Source of the DNA: Minisyncoccota bacterium
GTDB lineage: Bacteria; Patescibacteriota; Minisyncoccia; Phycocordibacterales; Phycocordibacteraceae
NCBI GenBank assembly: GCA_041664265.1
Contig: JBAYLD010000003.1
Location: 7,988-71,987, forward strand
Direction of reading: 5' to 3'
DNA length: 64,000 nucleotides
Shown here piece by piece: positions 1 to 62,215 of this stretch. The notes below the pieces were generated by a model, which saw only the letters and a program-made list of their open reading frames with translations, had not been told where the DNA came from and searched no databases. The number at the start of each line of letters is the position of its first letter. Position 1 is the stretch's first letter. The translations under genes were made by a program, and so were the position numbers.

Positions 1-1047
1 ATCAAGCTTCTCTCGGGTGTGAAGCTAAACGTCACGAATCGGGCACAAGATGGCCGCTTCAGCGTTGCACTCCAAAAGGCGACCCCGACGTCTGAAGTCG
101 GGGTCCCGACCGCAAGCGTCGGGATAGAAATGCGCGTCTCTTTCATCCCCGGGAACTTTGGAGAGTCTATTGTGCTGCGCATCCTTAATCCTGAAGCGAC
201 CAAAGTTTCGTACAAAGAGCTCGGCATCCAGCCCAAACTCCTCGCGCGCCTCGAGACGGAGATCCGGCGCCCCAACGGCATGCTACTTACCACCGGCCCT
301 ACCGGGAGCGGCAAGACGACGACGCTCTACTCATTCCTCCGCGAGATCCACACGCCCGATATAAAGATCATCACCATCGAAGATCCGGTCGAATATCACC
401 TTAAGGGTATCGTACAGACACAAGTCGAGGGGACGAAATACACATTTGCCGAGGGGCTCAAATCTATCGTTCGCCAAGATCCGGACATCATCATGGTCGG
501 CGAGATCCGCGACGGCGAGACCGCCGATATCGCGATACAGGCGGCACTCACGGGCCACTTCGTCTTCTCAACCCTCCACACCAACAATGCCGCCGGTACC
601 TTCCCCCGGCTGGCCGACCTTGGTGCGGATCCAAAATCCTTCGGCTCAGCGGTAACCGTCTCGATGGCGCAGCGCCTCTTGCGTAAGCTTGATCCGGAAA
701 AGAAAAAAGAACGCTCGCTCACTGATGAGGAGAAAGCGATGATTACAAAGGTGTTTGAGCCGCTCGCCGACAAGTCGCTCATCCCTGAAAAAATAGAGAC
801 CGTATGGGATCCGGCACCCGCCAGCGATGAAGAGACCGGTTACCACGGCCGCATCGGCCTCTATGAGGCGATCTTTATGGACGACGAGCTCGCGTCGTTC
901 CTGCGCGACAATCCGCCTGAAAACGAGATCGCCAAGCTCACCGCCAAGCAAGGCTACCTCACGATGGCGCAAGATGGCATCCTCAAAGCTCTCGCCGGCG
1001 TCACCTCCCTCACTGAAGTCGCCGACACCGTCGACCTTCCGAGATAG
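1..1047 (+). CDS. PilB/GspE-family secretion/pilus assembly ATPase (5' partial, gene continues upstream of window)
   Basis: Walker A GPTGSGKTTT, conserved GspE core (IEDPVEY, DIIMVGEIRD, TLHTN), C-terminal ~90 aa tail typical of PilB/GspE rather than PilT; paralog of the complete PilB at 28352-30100. Confidence 0.85.
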   Translation: MKLLSGVKLNVTNRAQDGRFSVALQKATPTSEVGVPTASVGIEMRVSFIPGNFGESIVLRILNPEATKVSYKELGIQPKLLARLETEIRRPNGMLLTTGPTGSGKTTTLYSFLREIHTPDIKIITIEDPVEYHLKGIVQTQVEGTKYTFAEGLKSIVRQDPDIIMVGEIRDGETADIAIQAALTGHFVFSTLHTNNAAGTFPRLADLGADPKSFGSAVTVSMAQRLLRKLDPEKKKERSLTDEEKAMITKVFEPLADKSLIPEKIETVWDPAPASDEETGYHGRIGLYEAIFMDDELASFLRDNPPENEIAKLTAKQGYLTMAQDGILKALAGVTSLTEVADTVDLPR

Positions 1048-5843: not shown

Positions 5844-6944
5844 CTATTGATTCATTGGGGAGACAAGATAGAGGAGTGAGGTATCCCCTACCCCTTTTAT
5901 AATCAGCGGGCGGCCGATGCCTGCAGCAGTGAGTGAGAGGCTCTCAGTGGTAGTAAGTGAGAGTGCTGCTAAAAGATAGCGATAATTAAAAGAAAGATCG
6001 AGTGCGCTCCCCGCTATGCGAGCAGAAAGCGTCTCTGACGCTTCGCCTACATCAGTATTCTTCGCGAATAAAGAGAGTGTATTCTTTTTTGGATCAAAAC
6101 TTAAGCGCACTTTCTGAAAAGAGTCTGAAAAGATGGTTGTTTGTTTTAACGCATGTTCAAAATCTTTTCTCAACACTATTGCCTCAACAATTGATTCTTT
6201 CGGGATTATCTGACGATAATCAGGATATACCGAATTCGTAAGCCGAGATACCAACATACCACTCGTGCTCACAAACGCGCATTGATGTTCATCAAACGAC
6301 ATTATAATGTCGTCATCTGGTAGCGCTTGTGCTATATCAAGGGCATTTTTTGCAGGAATGAGGAATTTCCCTTGTGTTCCTTTGTTTATAAGAGGTATTT
6401 TTTTCTCTGCAAGCCGAAATGAGTCTGTCGCAACCGCAGTTAAGATACCCCCTTCTATTGAGATATAGATACTCGCAAGTTCTGGGCGAACAGTTGAGGA
6501 TGAAGCACAAGGCGCAAGAGAAGAAAATAGAGCGCGCAGAAGAACTCCCGGGAGGACAATCCTATTTTTGGGGTTCTCGGGAAATGGGATTGAAGGAAAA
6601 TCCTCATACAGAACAGTCCGTATAGAACTTTTCCCCATGCCGCTTGTGAGCGATACGATATCTCCAGTGTGTTCTAGAGTAATAGTTCCTCCTGGAGTGA
6701 GTGTGTGTGCTATTTGTTGTAGTATCGTTGAGGGTAGGGCTACCACGCCGTGAGTTTTGCATTCTCCTTCAATTTTTAAATCTATTCCCGTTTCAAGATT
6801 TGTTGCACGCATCTTTATCCCATCATCCCCAGCAATAATAAGGATGGTAGAGAGTGCAGGGAGTGTCGTACTCTTACGTTCTGCGAATCGAGCAACAGTA
6901 GAGACTGCTTCAGAGAATATTTTTTTATCTATTGAAATATACAT
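5844..6944 (-). CDS. dnaN: DNA polymerase III beta sliding clamp
   Basis: 366 aa, three-domain clamp pattern, position immediately downstream of dnaA. Confidence 0.9.
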   Translation of the reverse strand: MYISIDKKIFSEAVSTVARFAERKSTTLPALSTILIIAGDDGIKMRATNLETGIDLKIEGECKTHGVVALPSTILQQIAHTLTPGGTITLEHTGDIVSLTSGMGKSSIRTVLYEDFPSIPFPENPKNRIVLPGVLLRALFSSLAPCASSSTVRPELASIYISIEGGILTAVATDSFRLAEKKIPLINKGTQGKFLIPAKNALDIAQALPDDDIIMSFDEHQCAFVSTSGMLVSRLTNSVYPDYRQIIPKESIVEAIVLRKDFEHALKQTTIFSDSFQKVRLSFDPKKNTLSLFAKNTDVGEASETLSARIAGSALDLSFNYRYLLAALSLTTTESLSLTAAGIGRPLIIKGVGDTSLLYLVSPMNQ

Positions 6945-7055: not shown

Positions 7056-8441
7056 TCATACAAGAAGGGTACGGATATTTTGAATCTCAGTTGCGAGATC
7101 ACTATCCACAACAATTTCACGCTTTACCTTCTCACAAGAGTGGATAACAGTCGTATGATCTCTCCCTCCTAATTTTGTGCCGATAGCGGGATACGAGATA
7201 TTAAAATCTTCCCTCAAGAGGTACATAATAACTTGCCGCGGGCGCACCACTTCCCTCCTACGAGTCTTTTCGTAGATACTTTCTTCATCAATACCATAGA
7301 ATTCTGCCACTTTATCAACGACGTTTTTTACCGATATGCTTTTTTGAGGTCGGGTGAATGAGCGGAGTGACTGCCGCACTTCAGCTATATCAGGCGCACA
7401 CCCCTTCACCTGCGCGTGGCACACAATGCTATTTATCATTCCCTCCAGTTCACGTATTGATCCAGAAAGAGAGGTTGCGACATACTCGACCACTTCATCC
7501 GAGAGTATAAAACCATGTAGAGCAGCCTTTTTTCGTATAATAGCCATGCGCGATTCCGAATCAGGTTCGCTAATATCAACAGCCATACCACTTGATAAAC
7601 GGCTCTTTAAGCGCTCAGCAATATCAGGGATAGCTACAGGAGCGCGGTCGGAGGAAAAAATAATTTGTTTATTTGTGTCGTGGAGGGTATTAAAAAGGTG
7701 GAAAAGCTCCTCTTGCGTCTTATCCTTCTTAGAGAGGAATTGTACATCGTCCATGATCAAAAGATCGTATTGACGATATTTATCTTTAAAGCGATTTGCG
7801 GTTCCCGCTTGTAAGGAATCGCTGTAATCAACAGCGAATTTTTCTGAGGTGAGATAAAAGACTTTTCGCCCCTGATACAATTTTTTAAACTGGTTGCCTA
7901 TCGCTTGGATAAGGTGGGTCTTCCCTCTCCCGGTATCACCATAGATAAAAAGAGGGTTATAGGTAATACCAGGGCGTCCTAGAGCCGCTTGTGCCGCGGT
8001 ATACGCGAGTGTATTAAATGAGCCGATGACAAACGTATCAAATGTGTACCTCGGGTTCAAATTGTCACTTTTGTTGATATAAAAATCATCCAAAGGGAGC
8101 TCAAGCGCGCCGCTGGTGTTCTTAACCTCCTTCTGCACCTTTCGCCGGTCATCTTTTAAAATAAGGTATTCTATGTTCCTAAACTCGTACGAAACATCCC
8201 TCAGTATCTTTAAGAGTAATGTGTGGAATTTTTTTAAGTACCAATCTTTGAAAAACTGGCTTGGCACCCCGATATAGACAACACCATCTTCATCCACTTT
8301 TGCGATAAAACTGGTACAAAACCATGTGTTGAAATTTGCTGGTGATATAGAAAGCTCAACCTGCGTTAGCACATATTCCCAAAGTTCCTGGAGATTCCCT
8401 TTATTCATAATCGTATAGTCTGAGTATACTCTTGCCTCCAA
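7056..8441 (-). CDS. dnaA: Chromosomal replication initiator protein DnaA (TTG start)
   Basis: AAA+ Walker A GDTGRGKTHL, DnaA box-binding C-terminal domain (VIMYLLRE, HTTVIHS), 461 aa. Confidence 0.95.
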   Translation of the reverse strand: MEARVYSDYTIMNKGNLQELWEYVLTQVELSISPANFNTWFCTSFIAKVDEDGVVYIGVPSQFFKDWYLKKFHTLLLKILRDVSYEFRNIEYLILKDDRRKVQKEVKNTSGALELPLDDFYINKSDNLNPRYTFDTFVIGSFNTLAYTAAQAALGRPGITYNPLFIYGDTGRGKTHLIQAIGNQFKKLYQGRKVFYLTSEKFAVDYSDSLQAGTANRFKDKYRQYDLLIMDDVQFLSKKDKTQEELFHLFNTLHDTNKQIIFSSDRAPVAIPDIAERLKSRLSSGMAVDISEPDSESRMAIIRKKAALHGFILSDEVVEYVATSLSGSIRELEGMINSIVCHAQVKGCAPDIAEVRQSLRSFTRPQKSISVKNVVDKVAEFYGIDEESIYEKTRRREVVRPRQVIMYLLREDFNISYPAIGTKLGGRDHTTVIHSCEKVKREIVVDSDLATEIQNIRTLLV

Positions 8442-8651: not shown

Positions 8652-8966
8652 GTGTTTCCGCGCAAAGAACGGTTTCCGCGCGCGCTCTTCCCCACCGCTT
8701 TAAAGACTGGCCGGCGACTCTCGTCAGCACATCTGACGATCCTCGTCCCAAGAGAAGGAAAGGGATATGCGGTGGTGGTGTCAAAAAAAGTGGCTCGTCT
8801 TTCAGTCAAGAGGAATCAAATAAGGCGCCGAATCCTCGCAGCGCTCCGCCGGGCACCCCTAGACGGAAAGACCCTCCCTCCGGCGCTTATTGTTTTTCCC
8901 CGTTCTTCTGTGAGTAGTGTAAGCTATAAAGATATTAAGGTAGAACTTATGCAACTTATTCCGTGA
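8652..8966 (+). CDS. rnpA: Ribonuclease P protein component (GTG start)
   Basis: Small basic protein directly after rpmH, RnpA-like RNR motif region (KRNQIRRRI), 104 aa. Confidence 0.85.
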   Translation: MFPRKERFPRALFPTALKTGRRLSSAHLTILVPREGKGYAVVVSKKVARLSVKRNQIRRRILAALRRAPLDGKTLPPALIVFPRSSVSSVSYKDIKVELMQLIP

Positions 8967-9694
8967 TATCAGCTTTTTTCCACACCGTCTTCTATAATCC
9001 GATCTACAATGCGCTCGTTGCGCTCGTTGCGCTCGTGCCTGGCTCTGATGTGGGTATTGCTGTCGTGTTGCTCACGATCGGTATTCGGCTTATCCTCCTC
9101 CCCTTCTCCCTCTCGGCGGCGCGTACCCAGCGCGCGATGAAGGCTTTAGAGCCAAAAATCAAGGAATTGAAGGATAAACATAAGGGCGATAAAGAAAAAG
9201 AGGCGCTTGAGACTCTCGCACTCTATCGCGAATCGCGTGTGAACCCATTTGCGAGCATTTTGACGGTTTTTATCCAGATACCGGTCCTTCTCGCGCTCTA
9301 TTGGGTGTTCTATTATGAGCCGTTTTCAACGATTAATACGGCTCTGTTGTACCCGTTTACCCCCACCCCCGGCACCGCGTCACTTGAATTCCTCGGGCTC
9401 ATCTCAGTCGCAGGTAAGAGCATTACGCTCGCGGTGCTCGCGGGGCTGACCCAATTCCTCCAAGCACACATGGCGCTCAGAGGGACCATGAGCCCAGCGC
9501 ACAGCAGTGCACAAGGGGATTTCCAGAAGATTATGGGCATGCAGCTCAAATATGTCTTCCCCTTCCTTATTGGCATTATTTCATATACAACTTCTGGAGC
9601 TGTGGCGCTTTATTTCATTACCACCAACCTCGCGGGCTCGCTCCAAGAATGGCACGTCCGGCGCAAACTCGACGCCGAAGCCCTACATACATAG
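8963..9694 (+). CDS. yidC: Membrane protein insertase YidC/Oxa1 family, short form (GTG start)
   Basis: 5 TM core with conserved YidC helices, 243 aa, follows rnpA. Confidence 0.9.
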   Translation: MISAFFHTVFYNPIYNALVALVALVPGSDVGIAVVLLTIGIRLILLPFSLSAARTQRAMKALEPKIKELKDKHKGDKEKEALETLALYRESRVNPFASILTVFIQIPVLLALYWVFYYEPFSTINTALLYPFTPTPGTASLEFLGLISVAGKSITLAVLAGLTQFLQAHMALRGTMSPAHSSAQGDFQKIMGMQLKYVFPFLIGIISYTTSGAVALYFITTNLAGSLQEWHVRRKLDAEALHT

Positions 9695-9917: not shown

Positions 9918-11114
9918 CTAGAGCGAGTAGCTCCAGAGGGAGTCGTCGTTTTTGTTTAGAAACACGAGTGTTGTGGCATCTGGGTCGATCGCGAGCGCAG
10001 TGGCGTCGAGAGAATCCCCGGTTTCTTCTGGGAAATCGAGCACCAGCTGCGCATAGCGGCCCTCGACTTCGATCTTCCAAATCCGATCAGAGAACTGCAC
10101 AGCTCCCTGGTACCAATCATCCGGATACACAGAGTCAGTAGGAGGGTCGAGCGGGATACCGCAGTATACTGAAGAGTCGTCAGCGGCCCACACGCATTTA
10201 TCGACGATCGTAGTGACCGGGAGTGATGTGATGTCGCCCGTCTCGGTGTCAACAAGATCTAATTGCAGAGCGTTATCGAGGACGTAGCTCACCAGCGCCC
10301 ACTTCCCTGAGGGGCTCGCGAGGGCGACGAGACCGTTGAGCGGTCCGGCGATTCGGGAAAAGCGCCCAGCGTCATCGACAAGAAAGGCAGCCCCAGGGAG
10401 TGTGGCGGCTGGCTTGGTATACGCGAGATAGCGCGATTTGCCAGCAAATGAAACACGCAGCGCAGAGAGCGGGGTGCTAAACAGCTCTGCCGTACGCACA
10501 TCGTTTGTGGTACTAAGTGTCGCAACAGAACCAGTGACACCCGAGACGAGTGTGAGCACGCCCGCCGAAGAAACAGCGAGAGCAGAAATATTTTGCGGCA
10601 AAAAGAATCCTTCTGGTGGCGCCTCGGAGCGCGCCGGGAGTGCGTAGGTATTGATCGTAGAGAAATCTTCGCCGGAGAGGTACCGGACGAATGCCGTTTT
10701 TGCATCGGGGACCCACGCGGCAGATTGGATACCCGGGATCGTTTGATTATTCGTTCGGGTGACGGCTCCTGTGCGTGTGCTATAGGAGAAAACGTTTCCG
10801 CTCTGCCGTTCAATATAGTGCACCAGCGTCTCGGGAGAGGAACTTGCGTTTATCGCAGGGGCATTCACCACGGCCTCGCCCGGCACTACCGGTCCCACGC
10901 TTATCTTCACGAGCCGCGCGGATATGGGGGTCGGTTCGCCCGCGGGTGTCGTGGTGCCGGAGTCTGCAGGAAATATACCCTGCCCCGCTAGAGGGAGGTT
11001 TACGTTTGGCGCGACGGTGAGGCTCGCTTTGGGGGTGAAGAAATAGAAATAGACGAACGCACCTACTCCTATCAGGAGTATCAGAATCGCGGCGATGATC
11101 AAGATGCGTCGCAT
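9918..11114 (-). CDS. Membrane-anchored hypothetical protein (N-terminal TM, ~370 aa extracytoplasmic Ser/Thr-rich beta-rich domain); last gene of T4SS-like operon
   Basis: TM helix RRILIIAAILILLIGVGAFVYFYFF; no recognisable catalytic motif; start taken at second Met of ORF 9918-11144. Confidence 0.55.
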   Translation of the reverse strand: MRRILIIAAILILLIGVGAFVYFYFFTPKASLTVAPNVNLPLAGQGIFPADSGTTTPAGEPTPISARLVKISVGPVVPGEAVVNAPAINASSSPETLVHYIERQSGNVFSYSTRTGAVTRTNNQTIPGIQSAAWVPDAKTAFVRYLSGEDFSTINTYALPARSEAPPEGFFLPQNISALAVSSAGVLTLVSGVTGSVATLSTTNDVRTAELFSTPLSALRVSFAGKSRYLAYTKPAATLPGAAFLVDDAGRFSRIAGPLNGLVALASPSGKWALVSYVLDNALQLDLVDTETGDITSLPVTTIVDKCVWAADDSSVYCGIPLDPPTDSVYPDDWYQGAVQFSDRIWKIEVEGRYAQLVLDFPEETGDSLDATALAIDPDATTLVFLNKNDDSLWSYSL

Positions 11115-11118
11115 AGCA

Positions 11119-11895
11119 TTATGGCGTAGGTACGTTGCACCCAACCACGAGGCTTAAACTACCCGGACACGTAAGGGTATTCGTTTTTGGGTCGACGCTC
11201 GTGACTTGGGCGGTTTTCCCGTCTGGGCTTAGGCATTTAGGTTGCTGGGGCCTCCCAGGGATAGCAGAGCAGCTTTTTATGGTGTTCTTGCAATCAGGAT
11301 CATTGGTGCAGAACATCAGTCGCAGGCTGGGGTCGGTAGATACTATTGAGTTTAATCCTCCTGCAAGTGGCGGAGGTGTGGGTGCTATTGGCACTCTTGT
11401 TGATGTTGATGATTTGGTATCGAGTGCCGGAAGGTTCAACGAGAGATTTAGGATGTTCGGATTGATAATGGAGAAGACGATTGCCGGCGAGAGGACGAGG
11501 ATAAGGCCGTATATGGCGTTGTAGATTTTCCCCTTATCATCAGTGATGGTACTGACCGCGTCTTTATGGAAGTAAGCGATATCGAGTCCGGACCATATGA
11601 TCTGGATGATTGCGAGTATCGCGGCAAGCCCGATGAGATATTTATAGAGATTATTGAAGAAGGTGGCGAGCGAAGTTGAATTCACCACACTCGTCACACT
11701 AGCATCAGTAAGTCCGGGGATGGGCGCGAGTGCGACGAAGCTGACACATTTGTTTTCCGCACAAGAAAGCCCCGAAACACAGTCGTTATCGCTCGTACAA
11801 GCACTTCCATTCTGACCGGTACCCGCAGCGAGCACATACGGCGCAAGCCCAAAGAAAAGAGACAAGATTGCTGCAAAGAGGACTGTTTTTCTCAT
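11119..11895 (-). CDS. Secreted cysteine-rich protein with central double-TM hairpin; candidate VirB2/TrbC-like pilin subunit
   Basis: Signal peptide, two hydrophobic helices (LIGLAAILAIIQIIWSGL / IYGLILVLSPAIVFSII) resembling T4SS pilin fold, operonic with VirB4. Confidence 0.4.
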   Translation of the reverse strand: MRKTVLFAAILSLFFGLAPYVLAAGTGQNGSACTSDNDCVSGLSCAENKCVSFVALAPIPGLTDASVTSVVNSTSLATFFNNLYKYLIGLAAILAIIQIIWSGLDIAYFHKDAVSTITDDKGKIYNAIYGLILVLSPAIVFSIINPNILNLSLNLPALDTKSSTSTRVPIAPTPPPLAGGLNSIVSTDPSLRLMFCTNDPDCKNTIKSCSAIPGRPQQPKCLSPDGKTAQVTSVDPKTNTLTCPGSLSLVVGCNVPTP

Positions 11896-12878
11896 AGGCC
11901 AAAGAAGCTAAAGCCGCTCGATGAAGCGCCAAATATGAGAGAGAGCGCGGCGGTCGCTTGCGCAGATTCTCCAGCCGAGGCGACGAGCGAGAGTGAGGCG
12001 CTCCCCTGCCCGCTTCCTGTGGGTCGGAGCGTTATAGAGGTCCCGGTTTGCGCCTCAGACCCGTTCAAGAACCATTGGAGAAGCGGCGCGCCGCCGGTGA
12101 TCGGCAGAGAGAACGGTGCGGCATAGAGCGTATCCTCCGCGCCGTTGATGGTGTAGTTACCAGAGAGTGCGTGCCCGAAGCGAATACCAAGCAGCGGATC
12201 ATTCTCATACACGCGCAGCGAGGGCTCGCTTGGGGTGAGTGAGATCGTTGTGCCACCGACGAGGCTCCCGTCTGAGCTCGCGACTGAGACTGAGACCGAT
12301 CGTGAACGATATTGCAGCGGCGATGCAACGATGATGGTCTCCTTCCCGATGCCTGAGGCTCGCGCGACGTGTGCGCCATCGACGGTCCACGCATAAGCAT
12401 ATGAAGATGGATCGAGCGTCTTGCCTTTTGCATCGCTTAAGCGGGCCATCGCTACAACGCGCACATCTCCCTCAACCGGCACCAGGGGCTTCCCTAGGTA
12501 GAGCGGGGGCGCCGAAGCAATCGGCTCGGCGATGAGCACAACGTCTTGGGGTTGGATAGAAATCGTCTGGCTATGGTTTGCTCCATTCGAAATTATCGTT
12601 ACCACTGCACGCGTGACACTTCCTGTCCTGCCGAGCGGGAGAGCAGTCGGCTGGACGTTCCCGCGATACAGCTCTTTGCCCGCAACCGAGACGATCATGG
12701 TCGCGCTTGCGAGGTCAATTGTAGGAGAGACGACTGAGAGCACCGCCTGGCTGTGAGGAGCTGGATATTGAGGGCTTAGTGAAATAGAAAAAGTTCCTGC
12801 AGTGCCGAGGGTTTGCGCCAAAACGGCGAGGGGCAGTAAGAGGATGAGGACAAGAGCGGTGAAGAGAAAAGAACGCAT
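11892..12878 (-). CDS. Secreted hypothetical protein (signal peptide, Ser/Ala-rich, ~330 aa)
   Basis: Signal peptide MRSFLFTALVLILLLPLAVLA; no motif recognised; in T4SS-like operon. Confidence 0.55.
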   Translation of the reverse strand: MRSFLFTALVLILLLPLAVLAQTLGTAGTFSISLSPQYPAPHSQAVLSVVSPTIDLASATMIVSVAGKELYRGNVQPTALPLGRTGSVTRAVVTIISNGANHSQTISIQPQDVVLIAEPIASAPPLYLGKPLVPVEGDVRVVAMARLSDAKGKTLDPSSYAYAWTVDGAHVARASGIGKETIIVASPLQYRSRSVSVSVASSDGSLVGGTTISLTPSEPSLRVYENDPLLGIRFGHALSGNYTINGAEDTLYAAPFSLPITGGAPLLQWFLNGSEAQTGTSITLRPTGSGQGSASLSLVASAGESAQATAALSLIFGASSSGFSFFGL

Positions 12879-12882
12879 GTCT

Positions 12883-13383
12883 CTAGTATACCCCAGCGTT
12901 CGGCATCGTTTGTTGAGTTTGTTCATATTTTTTCAACACCTTTTTGTCGTTCTCTATCTGCGTTTTGTAGATGCCCCAAACCATAACAAGCACGCTTGCG
13001 CCGAGGCCCCCAAGCGACCAGAGGATGGAGAACGGATTGTCTTTAAACGCACGCCCGTTCGCCGCGAAGATAAAAAAGGTCACCGTGAGCCAACCGGCAA
13101 ACCCGACCGCCATCGCCATAATGGTGCCGAAGGCGATAAGCGCAGGTGCGCCGAGGTACCCGCCAGCGACGGCGCCAGCTCCACACACCAGCCCCCCTAC
13201 GGTTGTTCCAACGACACCACTGACTTTTGTCGTGCAATACAAGGCGGCTGCTGCCGGCCCGAAGAACCAAAAAAAGAGAAAAAAATAGCGCAGTGCGTCA
13301 AAGAGGGCGGCGGCAGCGAGGATCCATGATGCCCCCTTCCAGGTCATTATCTTGGGCGGCTTGCTATTTCTTTTCTGTAGCAT
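12883..13383 (-). CDS. Small polytopic membrane protein (4 predicted TM), T4SS-like operon component
   Basis: Hydropathy by eye; Gly-rich TM segments; overlaps VirB4 stop by 20 nt (translational coupling). Confidence 0.5.
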   Translation of the reverse strand: MLQKRNSKPPKIMTWKGASWILAAAALFDALRYFFLFFWFFGPAAAALYCTTKVSGVVGTTVGGLVCGAGAVAGGYLGAPALIAFGTIMAMAVGFAGWLTVTFFIFAANGRAFKDNPFSILWSLGGLGASVLVMVWGIYKTQIENDKKVLKKYEQTQQTMPNAGVY

Positions 13384-15181
13384 ACCGCGCTTTCTCTTCT
13401 TTTATCGCGAGAAGTTGCGAGGGATCAGAGGTGATGATCTGGTCCTCGGTATAACTGGCGACCACCTTAATCGCGACGTGCTTGAGGCCCGCGAAGAAGA
13501 GTCCCTCGCCCACGCCGGCCTCGAGGAGGAGATATTTCTCTTCGTCGGTGAGATTGAAAGTCTGTTGCAGCACCTCGATGGTTGTCGGGGACTGTTTTAA
13601 CAAGAGTTGCAGAGAAGAGTTGGTGAGAATGGGCCGTCCATAAGGGCTCTTCAAGAAGTCCTCGACGTCTTGGGTGATCGTGCAGACGCCCAGGTAATAT
13701 TTGCGCCCGCGTTTTGCGACTGAATAGAGGAATGACGCCGTATCCTCGCTCTTCATCATCCACCACGCTTCATCGATGATAAGCAGCCGCTTCTTCAGCT
13801 CGTGGCGCACGGCGTTCCAGATGTAATGGGTGATGATGTACATCGCCACTGGCTTGAGCTCATCCTCCATGTCACGCACCGAGAACACTTCAAATTGCTG
13901 CGTGAGATCGATGTTGGTTGGTTGGTTTAAGAATCCCGCCCACGAGCCGCGGGTATATTTAGAGAGCCGTTCGACCAGGGACTCGCTTCCCTCCATGCCC
14001 GAGAGCACTTGTTCGAAGTCAGAAAGGAGCGGCGACTCCGCCCCGGTGAAGTCGGCATCGCCGGTGATGTCCTTGAGCGCGTAGGTCTCGCTGATGGCGC
14101 GGTCAACGATAGCGTCTTCGGCGGGCGAGAGGCCGCCCAACATGATGCGGAAAAGTCCGACCAGCGAGATAATGTTAGAGCGCAGGATGTCCTTCGGGTC
14201 CTCGTCCTCTTTGACCGGCGGGAGGTCAAACGGGTTGATGTGGTGCTCGGAGGAGAGGGATATATGGAAGACGCGCCCGCCGGTCGCCTCGGCGAGCTGG
14301 TCGTATTCGCGCTCGGGGTCGATGACGATGATATCCGTCCCGAACATGAGCGAACGCAGGATCTCGAGTTTTGTGCAGTAGCTTTTACCGGAACCTGACT
14401 TCGCGAAAATAACCGAGTTGTAGTTCTCAAGCGAGAACCGGTCGAAGAGGATGAGTGAGGAATTGTGCCGATTGATGCCGTAAAGAATGCCGCGGTCGCT
14501 CGTGAGGTCGAACGACACGAAGGGGAAGATGGAAGAGAGCGGCGATGAGTTCAGTTTCGAATTGACCAAGAGTTCGTCGGTGCCGATCGGTAGGCACGAG
14601 CGGAATCCTTGCTCTTGTTGGAACAATGCGGGCTTTGTGTAGACCAGTTTAGCGTCAAGGATGCCACGGATGTCGCCCTCGGTCTTGTCTATCTCTTCCT
14701 TCGAGTTGCCGTAGAGCGCGAGGTACAACCCGACGTCGAACAGCTTTTCTTGGGCTTGTTGGAGATTGTTGCGCAGGCTCTCAAGGTCTTGATACGCTGT
14801 GTCCAAGAGTGGGTCGCGCACGAGCCCTTTTGACTCGCGTTCGTTGATCTGGCTCTGGACCTCGGCGACTTTTTTCTGGAAATCGCGCAATGCCCGTTCG
14901 GTCTCGACGGGGTGTATGAACAAAGAGACATCAAGTACCTTATCGAGATTGATGACGGGCGAGAACCAGCTGTCGGCAAGAAAGCGCGGGTAGGAAATGG
15001 TATAGAAGGCGCGGACGAACTTCTCTCCCAGCTCGATTTCGCGTGACCCTATCTTGAGGGCGGTTGGAGCGATGGTGTCGACGAGGTCGAGCGATCCTTG
15101 GGCGTAAATATCCTTGGGCAACACCGGCAGTACCGCGGGTGTCTCCTCCTTCTTCCGGCTGATAAAATCAAGTAGAGCCAT
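13364..15181 (-). CDS. VirB4/TrbE/CagE-family type IV secretion ATPase, C-terminal ATPase portion (605 aa)
   Basis: Walker A FAKSGSGKS, Walker B LLIIDEAWW, conserved VirB4 C-terminal region; lacks the N-terminal domain, which is encoded by the upstream ORF. Confidence 0.8.
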   Translation of the reverse strand: MALLDFISRKKEETPAVLPVLPKDIYAQGSLDLVDTIAPTALKIGSREIELGEKFVRAFYTISYPRFLADSWFSPVINLDKVLDVSLFIHPVETERALRDFQKKVAEVQSQINERESKGLVRDPLLDTAYQDLESLRNNLQQAQEKLFDVGLYLALYGNSKEEIDKTEGDIRGILDAKLVYTKPALFQQEQGFRSCLPIGTDELLVNSKLNSSPLSSIFPFVSFDLTSDRGILYGINRHNSSLILFDRFSLENYNSVIFAKSGSGKSYCTKLEILRSLMFGTDIIVIDPEREYDQLAEATGGRVFHISLSSEHHINPFDLPPVKEDEDPKDILRSNIISLVGLFRIMLGGLSPAEDAIVDRAISETYALKDITGDADFTGAESPLLSDFEQVLSGMEGSESLVERLSKYTRGSWAGFLNQPTNIDLTQQFEVFSVRDMEDELKPVAMYIITHYIWNAVRHELKKRLLIIDEAWWMMKSEDTASFLYSVAKRGRKYYLGVCTITQDVEDFLKSPYGRPILTNSSLQLLLKQSPTTIEVLQQTFNLTDEEKYLLLEAGVGEGLFFAGLKHVAIKVVASYTEDQIITSDPSQLLAIKEEKARYATEKK

Positions 15182-15214
15182 GGTGAAATATTTAAATATG
15201 TAAAAATTTAAATT

Positions 15215-15847
15215 TCATGCGAGGCGGATCGGATTCTCGAGTTCTCCCGGGTTAAATGAGCGATAGAGAAGCTCAATGACTTCTTCAGTGCCGAGCGAGA
15301 CCGCCCGCACCCCGGTACCCGCAAGGCCGCCGGCGACAAGCGAGAGCCTTTGGGAGAGTTGCGCGCGATTTTCTTCAAAGGAGGTTTGGGCAGCGGCACT
15401 TTTTGTCGAAGCGCTCTCGTTGCGTAAGAAGCCGATCGTATGTGCAGCGGAGACATGCGGGGCGTACGGGACGACGACATAAAATGACTTCGTCATGATG
15501 TTTGCCTGATCGGCAAAAGAACGGATGAACTCGATATATTCGCGCAATTGGATCCGCATGAGTTCGGTCTTCTGGGCAGCCTCTTTTGCTTCAAGGAGAT
15601 TTAGATAAGGGCGGAGATCCATCTTGCGGGAGTTGATGACGATTTGAATCGAGAAATCGAGCGTGTTGAGGAAATTCTGGAAGCCAAGCGTGATCGCGTG
15701 CTGTTCTTCAGCCGACTTAAGCCCGAAGTTGATGGAGGAGCAGATGAGGATCCCGCGATAGCCGCCGTCCTTAAGGGTGATGATCCCATCCCTGATTTCT
15801 TTGATCGGGACAAACTGTTGTGTAGCTCCTGCTGGTTTCTCCGCCAT
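15215..15847 (-). CDS. VirB4 N-terminal-domain-like protein (211 aa), separate ORF upstream of the ATPase ORF
   Basis: N-terminal motif FVPIKEIRDGIITLKDGGYRGILICSSINFGLKSAEEQ resembles conserved start of VirB4/TcpF/ConE family; start taken at MAEKP (upstream part of ORF 15215-16090 is basic low-complexity and overlaps next gene). Confidence 0.5.
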   Translation of the reverse strand: MAEKPAGATQQFVPIKEIRDGIITLKDGGYRGILICSSINFGLKSAEEQHAITLGFQNFLNTLDFSIQIVINSRKMDLRPYLNLLEAKEAAQKTELMRIQLREYIEFIRSFADQANIMTKSFYVVVPYAPHVSAAHTIGFLRNESASTKSAAAQTSFEENRAQLSQRLSLVAGGLAGTGVRAVSLGTEEVIELLYRSFNPGELENPIRLA

Positions 15848-15848
15848 A

Positions 15849-16286
15849 CTACTTTTGTGCCTCATCCGAGGGCGCGTCTTTGGCGGATACGTCCAACGAC
15901 CATGCAAGTTCCGAAAGCTTTCCCTGCGTGAGTTTTCTGCCAAGGGTGCGCCCCGCGGCGGGCGGCGTCGCCGCACTCGCCACCGCATTCTTCTCAGCTT
16001 CTTGTTGCCCCTGATGCTTCCAAAGGAGAAGCTTTGCGCCCGTATAATAATGCAACCCAGCCTCAAGAACCTCGATAAACGGCTTGCCATTTATCTTATA
16101 AAACGCGAGAGCTGCAGCGAGTGCGACCACGGGTATCGAGAGGAGGATCGCGAGGAGAATCGGCAGATAGGCGAAAAAGATGACGCAGAGCCCGCCGGCG
16201 CCGGCGATATAGATAAATTGTTTCAGGGTCAAAGGCCCTACGATCTTGTCTTCGACCTCAATGAACTGCGGCACTTGGTATTCCAT
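15849..16286 (-). CDS. Small membrane protein, VirB3/PrgI-like candidate (2-3 TM, 145 aa)
   Basis: Position immediately upstream of VirB4 N-domain with 1-nt spacer; hydrophobic core CVIFFAYLPILLAILLSIPVVALAAALAF. Confidence 0.4.
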   Translation of the reverse strand: MEYQVPQFIEVEDKIVGPLTLKQFIYIAGAGGLCVIFFAYLPILLAILLSIPVVALAAALAFYKINGKPFIEVLEAGLHYYTGAKLLLWKHQGQQEAEKNAVASAATPPAAGRTLGRKLTQGKLSELAWSLDVSAKDAPSDEAQK

Positions 16287-17309: not shown

Positions 17310-17846
17310 ATGACGTACACACCAAAAACGTTCAACCTCTCTGCCCTATCGGGGATCTCGGATAAGCAGATTAAAGTGCATCTCGCGCTGTATGAGGGCT
17401 ACGTGAAGCAGGTGAACGAGCTCATCGACACGCCGAATGCTCCCCGATTTGCTTTTGAGTTTAATGGTATGCGTCTGCACGAATATTATTTTGAGCAACT
17501 TGAGGGACGTCAGACGTCCCTCACTTCCGGAAGCGCACTTGAGGGGATTGAGGCGAAAGTCAAAGAAACTGCGGGGACACGCGGCCCTGGGTGGGTGGTT
17601 GTGTACTTCGATCCGGTCACGCAGGCATTTCATACCGCTTTTGTGCATGACCATGAGATCGGTCAGTTCGCGGGGCTGCCGATTATTCTCGTGCTCGATA
17701 TGTGGGAGCACGCCTATATGGTGGACTATCTGCCAGCGGAGAAGAAGAATTATATTGACGCCTTCTTCGCCAATGTTAATTGGGGCGTGATTGAGAGGCG
17801 TTTTGACTCCGCCAGTCGTCGGAGCGAGAAGATGAGTGCCGCATAA
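17310..17846 (+). CDS. Fe/Mn superoxide dismutase
   Basis: DMWEHAY motif, conserved His ligands; start taken at MTYTPKTF with AGGGGG RBS (ORF 17217-17846). Confidence 0.85.
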   Translation: MTYTPKTFNLSALSGISDKQIKVHLALYEGYVKQVNELIDTPNAPRFAFEFNGMRLHEYYFEQLEGRQTSLTSGSALEGIEAKVKETAGTRGPGWVVVYFDPVTQAFHTAFVHDHEIGQFAGLPIILVLDMWEHAYMVDYLPAEKKNYIDAFFANVNWGVIERRFDSASRRSEKMSAA

Positions 17847-19300
17847 GCAGCGACGACGAACAGGAACGGGAAACGTTCGATCATAAATGCAGAAAAAGGT
17901 AGTGCGGAGCTCTTTTCTGCGACAAAGATGAAATAACGCATAAGGACGAACACAGGAGCCCCCGCTATGGTGGCGATAATCGGGACGAGCGGTCCTATCG
18001 TCATCCCGACGACGCCAGCGATTGCCGCCGAAGCCATAGCGATTGGTACCAGAGGATTAACGAGAAGGTTCGCCGGCAGGGCGACGAGCGAGAAGAGCCC
18101 GATGTTGTAGAGGAGGAGCGGCAGCACTGAAATTTGTGCTGCGAGCGTTGTCGCTACCGCGTTTTTCAAAAAGCCATGTTTGGACTTCGTAACTTCATCT
18201 GATGAGTGATTTACGAAGTCCCAGAGTCTCTCAATGATCGGCGAGAGCCAGATGATGCCGGCCGTCGCGGCGACGGAGAGGCCGAAGCCGGGGTCAAAAA
18301 CGAGATAGAGAGGATTCCAAAGGAGCATGAGCAGGATCGCGAAGAGCAGCGCACGGCTGGCGTAATAAGAGCGGCCGGTCGCGCGCGCATAGAGCGCGAT
18401 CACCGCCATAATCGCGGCGCGCACGGCAGTCGCCGAGATGCCGGCGACTCCGACAAAGAGGAGGAGCGCCGCCCCGCCGGCGAAGAATTGGAGCCGCCGC
18501 GGCAGCCGGAGAAGCGCGAAGAAAATCATCACCCACTCGGCCACGATCATGACGTTGTATCCCGAGAGCACGATGATCTGCACGAGCCCCGAGCGCGTGA
18601 AGGCGTCGGTGAGCGTAGTGCCGAGTCCCGCCTTCCCTCCTATGACGATGCCGCCCGCCAGCGCACTGTCTGGCTTGGGCAATGCGCGATTGAGCCCGTC
18701 TAAAAAGGCGTGCTTCACACGCGTGAGCGCTGCGGGGATTGAATACCACGGCGCTGCCTCCTCGGTGTGTATCGATCCAAATTGGATGAGGAATCGGATG
18801 TTCCGAGCCTGCAGATATTTATCATAGCGGAAGGTGCGGCCGCCATCGGTCTCAAATGCTTCCGGCAGGGAGAGCGTCCCATACACCCGCACCCGATCGC
18901 CGACCTTCACGTCGGCCGAGAGCGGCATCACTGCTAACATGCCGGTCACATCTTCTCCATTCCGTATCTCCAATGCGATGCGCTGATTCTTCTCGCGCAC
19001 ATCGGGATCGCCGACCACAACTCCGGTGTAAGACACTCGGTGTTTGACATCACGCATGAACGCGTCAGGCGCGGGCGTGTCCACGATCGCTGCACGCAGC
19101 ATCCCGAACGCGATGAACAAACAAAAAGCCGCGCCGAGTGTGTACGCTCGGCGCGGCTTCAAAAAACTCGCGGCACCAAAGATCGCCGCGATGATAAGTA
19201 TAAAAATAATCGGAGACCAACCAAAAATAAAAAGCGAGCGGAGAAATACCCCACTCGCGAATCCCATGACAATTGCAATTAGGATTTCCATGCTGCTCAA
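17750..19300 (-). CDS. comEC: ComEC/Rec2 family DNA internalisation competence protein (no C-terminal metallo-beta-lactamase domain)
   Basis: N-terminal OB/DUF4131-like region then multi-TM competence domain; 516 aa; 3' end overlaps sod gene convergently. Confidence 0.85.
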   Translation of the reverse strand: MSSMEILIAIVMGFASGVFLRSLFIFGWSPIIFILIIAAIFGAASFLKPRRAYTLGAAFCLFIAFGMLRAAIVDTPAPDAFMRDVKHRVSYTGVVVGDPDVREKNQRIALEIRNGEDVTGMLAVMPLSADVKVGDRVRVYGTLSLPEAFETDGGRTFRYDKYLQARNIRFLIQFGSIHTEEAAPWYSIPAALTRVKHAFLDGLNRALPKPDSALAGGIVIGGKAGLGTTLTDAFTRSGLVQIIVLSGYNVMIVAEWVMIFFALLRLPRRLQFFAGGAALLLFVGVAGISATAVRAAIMAVIALYARATGRSYYASRALLFAILLMLLWNPLYLVFDPGFGLSVAATAGIIWLSPIIERLWDFVNHSSDEVTKSKHGFLKNAVATTLAAQISVLPLLLYNIGLFSLVALPANLLVNPLVPIAMASAAIAGVVGMTIGPLVPIIATIAGAPVFVLMRYFIFVAEKSSALPFSAFMIERFPFLFVVAAYAALIFSLRRLAESKRLSITPQLTLAKKASI

Positions 19301-61299: not shown

Positions 61300-61710
61300 A
61301 TGGCTACCATCAATCAACTCTCGAAGAGAGGCCGTAAGAACAAAGCGTCAAAGACGAGCGTGCTTGCGCTCGCCCGTGGCTTTAACGCGCTCAAGAACCG
61401 CCCGACCTACTACCCCTCGCCCTTCAAGCGCGGCGTCTGCACCAAGGTGACCACCAAGACCCCGAGGAAGCCGAACTCAGCCATCCGCAAGATTGCTCGA
61501 GTGAAGCTCACCAACGGCATGGAGGTTACCGCCTATATCCCCGGTATGGGACACAACCTCCAAGAGCACTCGGTCGTGATGCTCCGTGGCGGTCGCGTGA
61601 AGGACATCGGCGTGCAGTACACAATCGTGCGTGGCAAGCTTGACGCAAGCGGCGTCGACAAGCGCCGCCGCGGCCGCTCGCGCTATGGCGCGAAGCGTCC
61701 GAAGGCGTAA
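61300..61710 (+). CDS. rpsL: 30S ribosomal protein S12
   Basis: ATINQL..., [21 protein letters not shown] signatures. Confidence 0.95.
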
Positions 61711-61750
61711 CATTTCAATATTTAAACTTTTAAACATTTAAATTTTCCCT

Positions 61751-62215
61751 ATGCGCCGACCCCTTAAACATAAAAGAACGTGGCGTCCCGACCTCAAATA
61801 CGGTTCGGAGACACTCTCCCGCTTTATTAATGCCGTCATGTGGAATGGTAAGAAGGACACGGCGCGTACGATTGTGTATGACGCCTTGGCGGTTATAGAG
61901 AAGGATGGTGCAAGTCCGCTCGAGACTTTTGAGTCAGCGTTGCGCAACGTATCGCCCTTGATGGAGGTGCGTTCGCGTCGCGTCGGCGGTGCGAACTATC
62001 AGGTGCCGCGCGAGGTCCCGCAGGCGCGCCGTCTCGCGCTCTCATTCCGTTGGCTCATCAACGCCGCCCGCGCTAAGAAGGGTAAGCCGATGGCGGAGAA
62101 GCTTGCGACCGAGCTCCTCTTGGCCGCCAAGAACGAGGGTGATGCAATCAAGAAGAAGGACGAGATGCATCGCATGGCAGAAGCCAACAAGGCCTTTGCT
62201 CACTTCGCGTGGTAA
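61751..62215 (+). CDS. rpsG: 30S ribosomal protein S7
   Basis: Conserved S7 core (RRVGGANYQVP), follows rpsL. Confidence 0.95.
   Translation: MRRPLKHKRTWRPDLKYGSETLSRFINAVMWNGKKDTARTIVYDALAVIEKDGASPLETFESALRNVSPLMEVRSRRVGGANYQVPREVPQARRLALSFRWLINAARAKKGKPMAEKLATELLLAAKNEGDAIKKKDEMHRMAEANKAFAHFAW

Follow-up and report, generated by a model that had tools for sequence, protein, structure and literature searches.

The analysed window is a stretch of 64,000 nucleotides from contig JBAYLD010000003.1 of a Minisyncoccota bacterium (assembly GCA_041664265.1), and all positions given below without a locus name refer to it. On its minus strand, the window carries a type IV secretion system (T4SS) operon in which the VirB4-type ATPase is represented by two separate open reading frames (ORFs), here called ORF-A and ORF-B. 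The gene preceding them (16286-15849) encodes a small PrgI/VirB3-like membrane protein of 145 aa, identified by a Pfam scan (PrgI, PF12666; E = 5e-11, 43.4 bits against a cutoff of 27). Its stop codon lies 1 nt upstream of the start codon of ORF-A. ORF-A (15847-15215) encodes a TrsD-like stand-alone protein of 210 aa, one residue shorter than the 211 aa given in the initial annotation, and terminates with a TGA codon at 15217-15215. The peptide FVPIKEIRDGIITLKDGGYRGIL...INFGLKSAEEQ corresponds to ORF-A residues 12-49. Reading the sequence onward, an AT-rich spacer of 33 nt (AATTTAAATTTTTACATATTTAAATATTTCACC; 15214-15182) separates ORF-A from ORF-B (15181-13364), which begins with an ATG at 15181, ends with a TAG and encodes a VirB4-like ATPase of 605 aa. 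The junction is thus made of a real stop codon, a spacer and a fresh ATG, as had been described. Both ORFs are in the same frame and the spacer is free of stop codons here, so that they are separated by a single TGA. Along the minus strand, the PrgI-like gene, ORF-A and ORF-B are followed by a 166-aa ORF, a 344-aa ORF, a pilin-like gene and a 408-aa ORF. The operon is tightly packed, and the 33-nt spacer is its sole real intergenic gap.

ORF-B carries the motifs expected from the initial annotation. From its translation and alignment numbering, the Walker A motif AKSGSGKS is formed by residues A260-S267 (14381-14404) and the Walker B motif LLIIDE by residues L466-E471 (13769-13786). In Pfam, ORF-B matches P-loop_TraG, AAA_10 and DUF87. 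In the NCBIfam CD1110 model (NF045971), which has 752 positions, ORF-B covers positions 183-733 with 374.7 bits (E = 9e-112) and passes the curated cutoff of 325, confirming the VirB4 core. Positions 1 to ~165 of this model are absent from the ORF-B polypeptide and are matched by the separate ORF-A (positions 1-164, E = 2.3e-7). The ATPase had been described as lacking the N-terminal domain. This is correct for the first subdomain (~165-215 aa), but approximately 250 residues upstream of Walker A are kept in ORF-B, which comprises a second N-terminal subdomain followed by the P-loop ATPase domain.

A fused relative gives the same result. P0233 is a single-chain VirB4 of 797 aa (L082 544-2937) from a Patescibacteria metagenome-assembled genome (MAG; GCA_964615945.1). 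It is encoded directly after a PrgI gene, and its neighbours include rnpA, yidC, dnaA and dnaN. ORF-A residues 6-204 are collinear with P0233 residues 5-213 (41% identity) and ORF-B residues 29-597 with P0233 residues 226-795 (56% identity), leaving a linker of about 12 residues between both parts. This is the alignment to a full-length VirB4 that had been proposed as a check. Since the same profile and the same fused protein are tiled in sequence by the two ORFs, their complementarity is not due to chance. ORF-A is thereby shown to correspond to the first N-terminal subdomain of a single-chain VirB4, and ORF-B to all the rest; the two add up to one VirB4. The single-chain CD1110 family (mating pair formation type FATA, MPF-FATA), including P0233 and an 807-aa protein of Anaerococcus pAPRE01, is collinear with ORF-A plus ORF-B and likewise has the PrgI gene immediately upstream, but makes one polypeptide where the present locus has two genes. 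In L082, L084 and L085, VirB4, whether split or fused, likewise has a PrgI gene in front of it. A search with the junction region of P0233 returned mostly gene fragments and only one further junction-spanning fragment, P0271. Fused forms look rare in this Patescibacteria clade.

Several other family models were compared with ORF-A. ORF-A matches positions 101-235 of the Mbov_0397 VirB4 model (E = 1.5e-8) and positions 19-142 of the 201 positions in the TrsD/TraD model (NF041427; 18.3 bits, E = 1.5e-3), the latter without reaching the cutoff of 200. The TcpF model gave no match to ORF-A. The proposed likeness to N-termini of monoderm-type VirB4 proteins is therefore supported by CD1110, Mbov_0397 and TrsD/TraD, but not by TcpF. 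Precomputed Pfam annotations place the 100%-identical database protein P0001 and each of the 120 best homologues in the family PF26593 ('TraC-like'), which also covers the N-terminus of the fused P0233. The local Pfam scan, whose copy apparently lacks PF26593, assigned no family to ORF-A (even at E = 10) or to the N-terminus of P0233.

The fold of ORF-A also points to VirB4. Sequence profile, fused homologue and fold thus all bear out a VirB4 divided between one gene for the N-domain and one for the ATPase. The AlphaFold2 (AF2) model of ORF-A has a mean predicted local distance difference test score (pLDDT) of 89.2. A Foldseek search of this model against the PDB returned 14 matches, all of them TrwK/VirB4 of the R388 T4SS (E = 1.5e-4 to 5e-3, template modelling (TM) score ~0.5), with the next PDB match at E = 0.2. 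A search of PDB sequences with the ORF-A family profile gave nothing, and matches were obtained by fold comparison only. A second AF2 model, in which ORF-A was joined to ORF-B residues 1-260, is collinear with TrwK over 432-491 columns (E = 3e-10). As a prediction, this concatenated model supports collinearity with TrwK, not docking of the two halves. R388 TrwK/VirB4 (PDB 7O41, 7O42, 7O43, 8RTB, 8RTD) is the sole PDB match of both models. It differs from the present protein in being a single chain of a diderm system, with an identity of 14-18%. In the ORF-A model, the secondary-structure elements (beta-beta-beta, alpha, beta, alpha-alpha, beta, alpha, beta, alpha) follow one another in a similar order to those modelled for the N-terminal region of ORF-B (window 15215-15847 compared with 14600-15100, the latter being ORF-B residues ~40-200). 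This predicted likeness hints at an ancient internal duplication in the N-terminal domain (NTD) of VirB4; hhalign detected no sequence signal for such a duplication between ORF-A and the ORF-B N-terminal region (E = 0.41).

The split is conserved among relatives. A search of a database clustered at 90% identity (E ≤ 1e-3) retrieved 6881 homologues of ORF-A. The best 120, all from MAGs of Paceibacteria, Kaiserbacteria or other Patescibacteria, are 209-225 aa long and 80-92% identical. At 50%-identity clustering, 2512 clusters were obtained; the top 150 include one fused form and otherwise consist almost entirely of stand-alone proteins of ~195-260 aa. Some TrsD-like homologues (P0132, P0177, P0178, P0196, P0218 and P0251) carry low-complexity P/Q/A/T-rich tails of 100-230 residues at the N- or C-terminus, in which no extra domain is apparent by eye. 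A survey using one genome per species returned 80 loci (L001-L080), of which 78 were analysable. In all 78 species-level relatives, the stop codon of ORF-A falls at one and the same position of the alignment (...RLDx*), and ORF-B starts from its own ATG (M[A/S]LLD). Looking for the same split in related genomes had been proposed as a check. The ORF-A stop codon is TAA in 44 loci, TGA in 25 and TAG in 9. The spacer measures 1 nt (20 loci), 2 nt (17), 3-8 nt (20), 14 nt (1), 24-39 nt (13), 113 nt (1) or 552-885 nt (5), and one locus shows a 14-nt overlap. The relative frames 0, 1 and 2 of the two ORFs are found in 24, 30 and 24 loci, respectively.

Selection on the two genes was estimated from codon substitutions. 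Synonymous sites are near saturation, with a proportion of synonymous differences (pS) of 0.56-0.73, and the proportion of nonsynonymous differences (pN) is 0.12 for ORF-A and 0.05 for ORF-B. The ratio of nonsynonymous to synonymous substitution rates (dN/dS) is about 0.1 for ORF-A and about 0.04 for ORF-B, with ranges of 0.06-0.12 and 0.04-0.05 in the least-diverged pairs. At the level of the coding sequences, both genes are thus shown to be under strong purifying selection. The ATPase encoded by ORF-B is unusually conserved for a T4SS gene, with 88-95% amino acid identity across species-level representatives while its synonymous sites are saturated.

These data bear on the possibility that the locus is a pseudogene or an artefact, in which a nonsense mutation, a sequencing error or an assembly error interrupts a single-chain virB4, with an ATG present downstream by chance. 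Such an origin would agree with the single TGA between two in-frame ORFs, with a spacer otherwise free of stops, and with the existence of fused single-chain relatives such as P0233 and the pAPRE01 protein. However, 78/78 species have a stop and then a new ATG at this same place in the alignment, with three different stop codons, spacers of -14 to 885 nt and all three frames. Together with purifying selection on both genes, this excludes a nonsense mutation or an assembly error. The identical 210-aa protein is also found on 2 independent contigs, and the insertion of unrelated genes at the junction in 5 species has led to the loss of neither ORF. A pseudogene or artefact has a vanishingly small probability. 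The initial annotation had left open a choice between gene fission and a pseudogenising nonsense mutation; the two-gene state is genuine, and the second option is refuted.

The 5 species with unrelated small genes between the two intact ORFs carry inserts of 552-885 nt with lower G+C content, located exactly between the TrsD-like gene and virB4 (L007 3478-4362, L014 4628-5346, L045 4631-5435, L060 613-1164 and L062 4628-5506). The inserts contain a 23S_rRNA_IVP (four-helix-bundle) gene, accompanied by DUF5680 in L007 and L062. A second ORF without a Pfam match is present in the L045 insert, and no second ORF is found in the L014 insert. In L060, a family-less ORF continues into the C-terminal half of an IVP-like sequence as one 164-aa ORF. 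The insert looks like a small selfish cassette targeting the trsD-virB4 junction. One further locus, L077 (DAHXMN010000149.1), is a 2-kb contig binned as 'Candidatus Woesearchaeota archaeon' that carries the trsD-virB4 junction. Over the ~70 nt compared, its stop codon, 39-nt spacer and flanks do not differ from those in the bacterial loci L078 and L079, and L077 is probably a mis-binned Patescibacteria contig.

The 33-nt spacer is composed of approximately four 8-nt units of the type TTTAAAnn (TTTAAATT, TTTACATA, TTTAAATA and TTTCACC). The same element, with the consensus AAACTTTTAmATATTTAAATATyTCAyC, is found at the trsD-virB4 junction of 13/78 relatives (L030, L039, L041, L046-L048, L052, L055, L069 and L076-L079), always after a TGA. 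Within the 64-kb window, sites with at least 3 units occur at two places only. The second is at 61711-61750 on the plus strand, where it forms the 40-nt spacer between rpsL (61300-61710) and rpsG (61751-62215), two genes identified from their translations and not by a family search. Both sites are intra-operon, between a stop codon and the next ATG, and no site with at least 3 units appeared in 50 shuffles of the window. The spacer could fold into a weak AU hairpin (-9.1 kcal/mol, z = -2.6); no sigma-70-like promoter was called in it and no Rfam match was found. The element looks recurrent, intra-operon and placed just upstream of a start codon. One speculative role is that of an AU-rich standby site for ribosomes or of a translation enhancer.

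The element and its constant TGA also raise the possibility of recoding, in which the TGA is read through or decoded, giving a single-chain VirB4 of 827 aa, perhaps in addition to the 210-aa product. Among stop codons TGA is the leakiest, and code-25 Patescibacteria decode it as an amino acid. The leakiness of TGA would favour such an outcome here, as would the in-frame, stop-free 33-nt spacer of the present genome, the equally stop-free in-frame spacers of L041 and L048, and the use of TGA by all 13 relatives with long AT-rich spacers, 11 of which have spacers that are multiples of 3. In contrast, an in-frame TAA or TGA is present in 9/12 long spacers examined and two are out of frame. The spacer is AT-rich and non-coding-like in a genome with a G+C content of 55%, and no suppressor tRNA was found in the window. 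Because most relatives use TAA or TAG with out-of-frame spacers of 1-2 nt, production of a fused protein cannot be what is conserved. The code-25 or read-through reading was rejected on the out-of-frame arrangement of 54/78 loci and the in-frame stops in the long spacers; we regard recoding as highly improbable. Independent translation of the two chains is the reading kept here.

The TrsD homologues of Patescibacteria have been described before. They adjoin virB4, and their homology to the N-terminus of VirB4 is remote (Quinonero-Coronel et al., 2025; PMC12102498). In that survey, 2,272 TrsD homologues were found in 2,221 assemblies, and 1,664 of them adjoin virB4; the Patescibacteria proteins were classed as TrsD homologues by hidden Markov model (HMM) and profile-profile searches, and one homologue is essential in Candidatus Southlakia epibionticum ML1 (PMC12102498). 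The present locus is an instance of this Patescibacteria TrsD plus VirB4 system, with chromosomal PrgI-like, TrsD-like, VirB4 and VirB2-like pilin genes (PMC12102498). Nothing essential differs from the published arrangement, and the 33-nt AT-rich spacer represents a less common variant.

The same gene order is found on the staphylococcal-type plasmid system of pSK41, where trsC (VirB3-like), trsD (227 aa) and trsE (672 aa, after a 14-nt spacer) correspond to the PrgI-like gene, ORF-A and ORF-B. ORF-A has the placement of a TrsD-type protein, being about 200-230 aa long and encoded after a VirB3-like gene and before a VirB4 ATPase that is short at its N-terminus. ORF-B shares 24% amino acid identity with pSK41 TrsE (E = 2e-39) from residue 32/33 to the end, and because the alignment begins at this residue, the breakpoint is the same as in pSK41. 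For ORF-A the resemblance is fainter. A profile of the 46-sequence ORF-A family aligns with pSK41 TrsD over 168 columns (hhalign E = 6e-4, probability 28%), and pairwise BLASTP of ORF-A with TrsD gives E = 0.045. The systems of pSK41 and pGO1 (TraD/TraE in pIP501) are conjugative and include a relaxase and VirD4, whereas the present locus is a chromosomal core, and the similarity between them is very remote.

Split loci were also found on plasmids of Bacillota. A tblastn search of ORF-A against plasmids matched 349 records, mostly megaplasmids of Bacillus, Paenibacillus, Geobacillus and Clostridium. Two loci were inspected (L083 4884-7563 and L085 4866-7824). The megaplasmids of Pontibacillus and B. 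thuringiensis Bt407 encode PrgI, a stand-alone 'hypothetical protein' of 274-328 aa and a VirB4 ATPase of 621-661 aa, with overlapping gene ends. In most of the 349 records the match is likewise listed as 'hypothetical protein'; gene order was looked at in two only. Judged from these matches, the split VirB4 is apparently widespread and under-annotated outside Patescibacteria. The split is old and lineage-wide and is common to pSK41 TrsD/TrsE and the Bacillota megaplasmids; it is not a recent fission in the present genome.

More distant arrangements show that the boundaries in this part of the system are evolutionarily plastic. The PrgI-like ORF, ORF-A and ORF-B weakly match successive parts of the actinobacterial SCO6880 model, at 14-19 bits against a cutoff of 60. 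VirB3-VirB4 fusions and the SCO6880 family illustrate the plasticity of the boundaries between VirB3, the VirB4 NTD and the ATPase module, but they are rearranged in the opposite direction, or in a different kind, than the present split.

The remaining genes of the operon lie downstream of ORF-B. The 166-aa hydrophobic ORF (12883-13383) shares 20 nt with the end of ORF-B. It matches no Pfam or NCBIfam family and shows no significant similarity to the 163-aa gene in the equivalent position of L082. A T4SS pilin-like protein of 258 aa (11895-11119) matches Pfam T4SS_pilin (PF18895; E = 1.1e-6, 29.1 bits against a cutoff of 26.6), and its match to TrbC/VirB2 is weak. The pilin gene is flanked by the 344-aa and 408-aa ORFs, to which no family was assigned and whose ends overlap their neighbours; this remaining part of the operon spans 9918-12926 on the minus strand. 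The whole operon (9918-16286) lies about 1.5 kb from yidC (8963-9694), dnaA (7056-8441) and dnaN (5844-6944), at the minimum of the cumulative GC skew. This position marks the operon as chromosomal and origin-proximal rather than part of a mobile element. In the inspected window parts (~1-19 kb), neither a relaxase nor a coupling protein was seen. Origin-adjacent T4SS loci have already been reported for Patescibacteria (PMC12102498), and the window agrees with this. Two other genes are located within a few kb of the operon, a T2SSE/PilB-type ATPase gene at 19-1047 (plus strand) and, on the other side, a ComEC competence channel gene at 17750-19300 (minus strand).

Taken as a whole, the locus is very probably a chromosomal, origin-proximal T4SS operon of a Paceibacteria-type Patescibacterium in which the VirB4 motor is normally made of two polypeptides. 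Some points speak against parts of this interpretation. With the TrsD/TraD model, ORF-A reaches 18 bits where the curated cutoff is 200, and it also stays far under the cutoff of the CD1110 model; for this reason its homology to the plasmid proteins is remote. The concatenated AF2 model folds both halves confidently and leaves their packing unfixed, with a predicted TM score (pTM) of 0.44 and a root-mean-square deviation of 17-18 Å to TrwK. On a neighbour-joining tree of ORF-B, the species with the (TTTAAAnn)n element are scattered in patches, and any role of the AT-rich spacer is purely inferred.

In R388, the VirB4 NTDs are membrane-embedded, connect the protomers of each dimer and contact VirB3 in the inner ring and VirB8 in the outer ring (PMC12857230). 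By analogy, ORF-A would pack non-covalently against the N-terminal region of ORF-B and rebuild the VirB4 NTD. ORF-A may also bind the PrgI/VirB3-like protein and serve as an adaptor between this protein and the ATPase, because the R388 NTD anchors the ATPase hexamer to the membrane via VirB3 and VirB8. Co-expression by translational coupling would provide matched amounts of both chains; such coupling is proposed because spacers of 1-6 nt and overlaps prevail (56/78 loci have 1-6 nt). In the present genome and the 13 relatives, the 24-39-nt (TTTAAAnn)n element would replace the minimal spacer, probably as an unstructured site where ribosomes land without a Shine-Dalgarno sequence and initiate ORF-B independently.

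A different role for ORF-A is conceivable, namely that of an accessory or regulatory T4SS protein that is homologous to the VirB4 N-terminus but acts independently, such as an assembly factor, a substrate adaptor or an inhibitor competing for VirB3. This would fit the TrsD homologues of Gracilibacteria, which are not associated with virB4 (PMC12102498), the long disordered P/Q/A/T-rich tails of many homologues, which suggest extra interactions, and the AF2 model, which docks both halves without confidence. However, the order VirB3-like, TrsD-like, ATPase is strict and most species show 1-6-nt coupling, fused relatives join the parts in the same order through a linker of only ~12 residues, and the ATPase starts at the same homologous residue in pSK41 TrsE, specifically without the ORF-A portion. 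An accessory protein of this kind is improbable, and ORF-A is better described as a detached part of the motor. A further idea, also rather unlikely, is that the split goes beyond a neutral variation in gene structure: a free TrsD-like subunit would be dosed separately, giving the monoderm or Patescibacteria VirB4 an assembly unlike the single-chain R388 hexamer of dimers, and (TTTAAAnn)n would be an undescribed Paceibacteria cis-element setting the translation ratio of the downstream cistron. Such a cis-element could act as a translation enhancer or as a protein- or RNase-binding site.

The TrsD-plus-VirB4 arrangement is already published, and the present analysis confirms and details this fact rather than discovers it. 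What is added here is the exact tiling of the profile by the two ORFs, the breakpoint shared with TrsE, the rare fused forms of Patescibacteria and the comparative proof of independent translation. For genome annotation, the 210-aa 'hypothetical protein' beside Patescibacteria virB4 should be labelled as a detached VirB4 N-terminal subdomain (TrsD-like), and the same label is due for its 'hypothetical protein' counterparts, which hundreds of plasmids of Bacillus, Paenibacillus and Clostridium carry. Annotators should not mark the accompanying short VirB4 as a truncation or a pseudogene. The T4SS of Patescibacteria is essential for their epibiotic lifestyle, and a two-chain motor with a defined breakpoint offers a handle for structural and genetic work on it.

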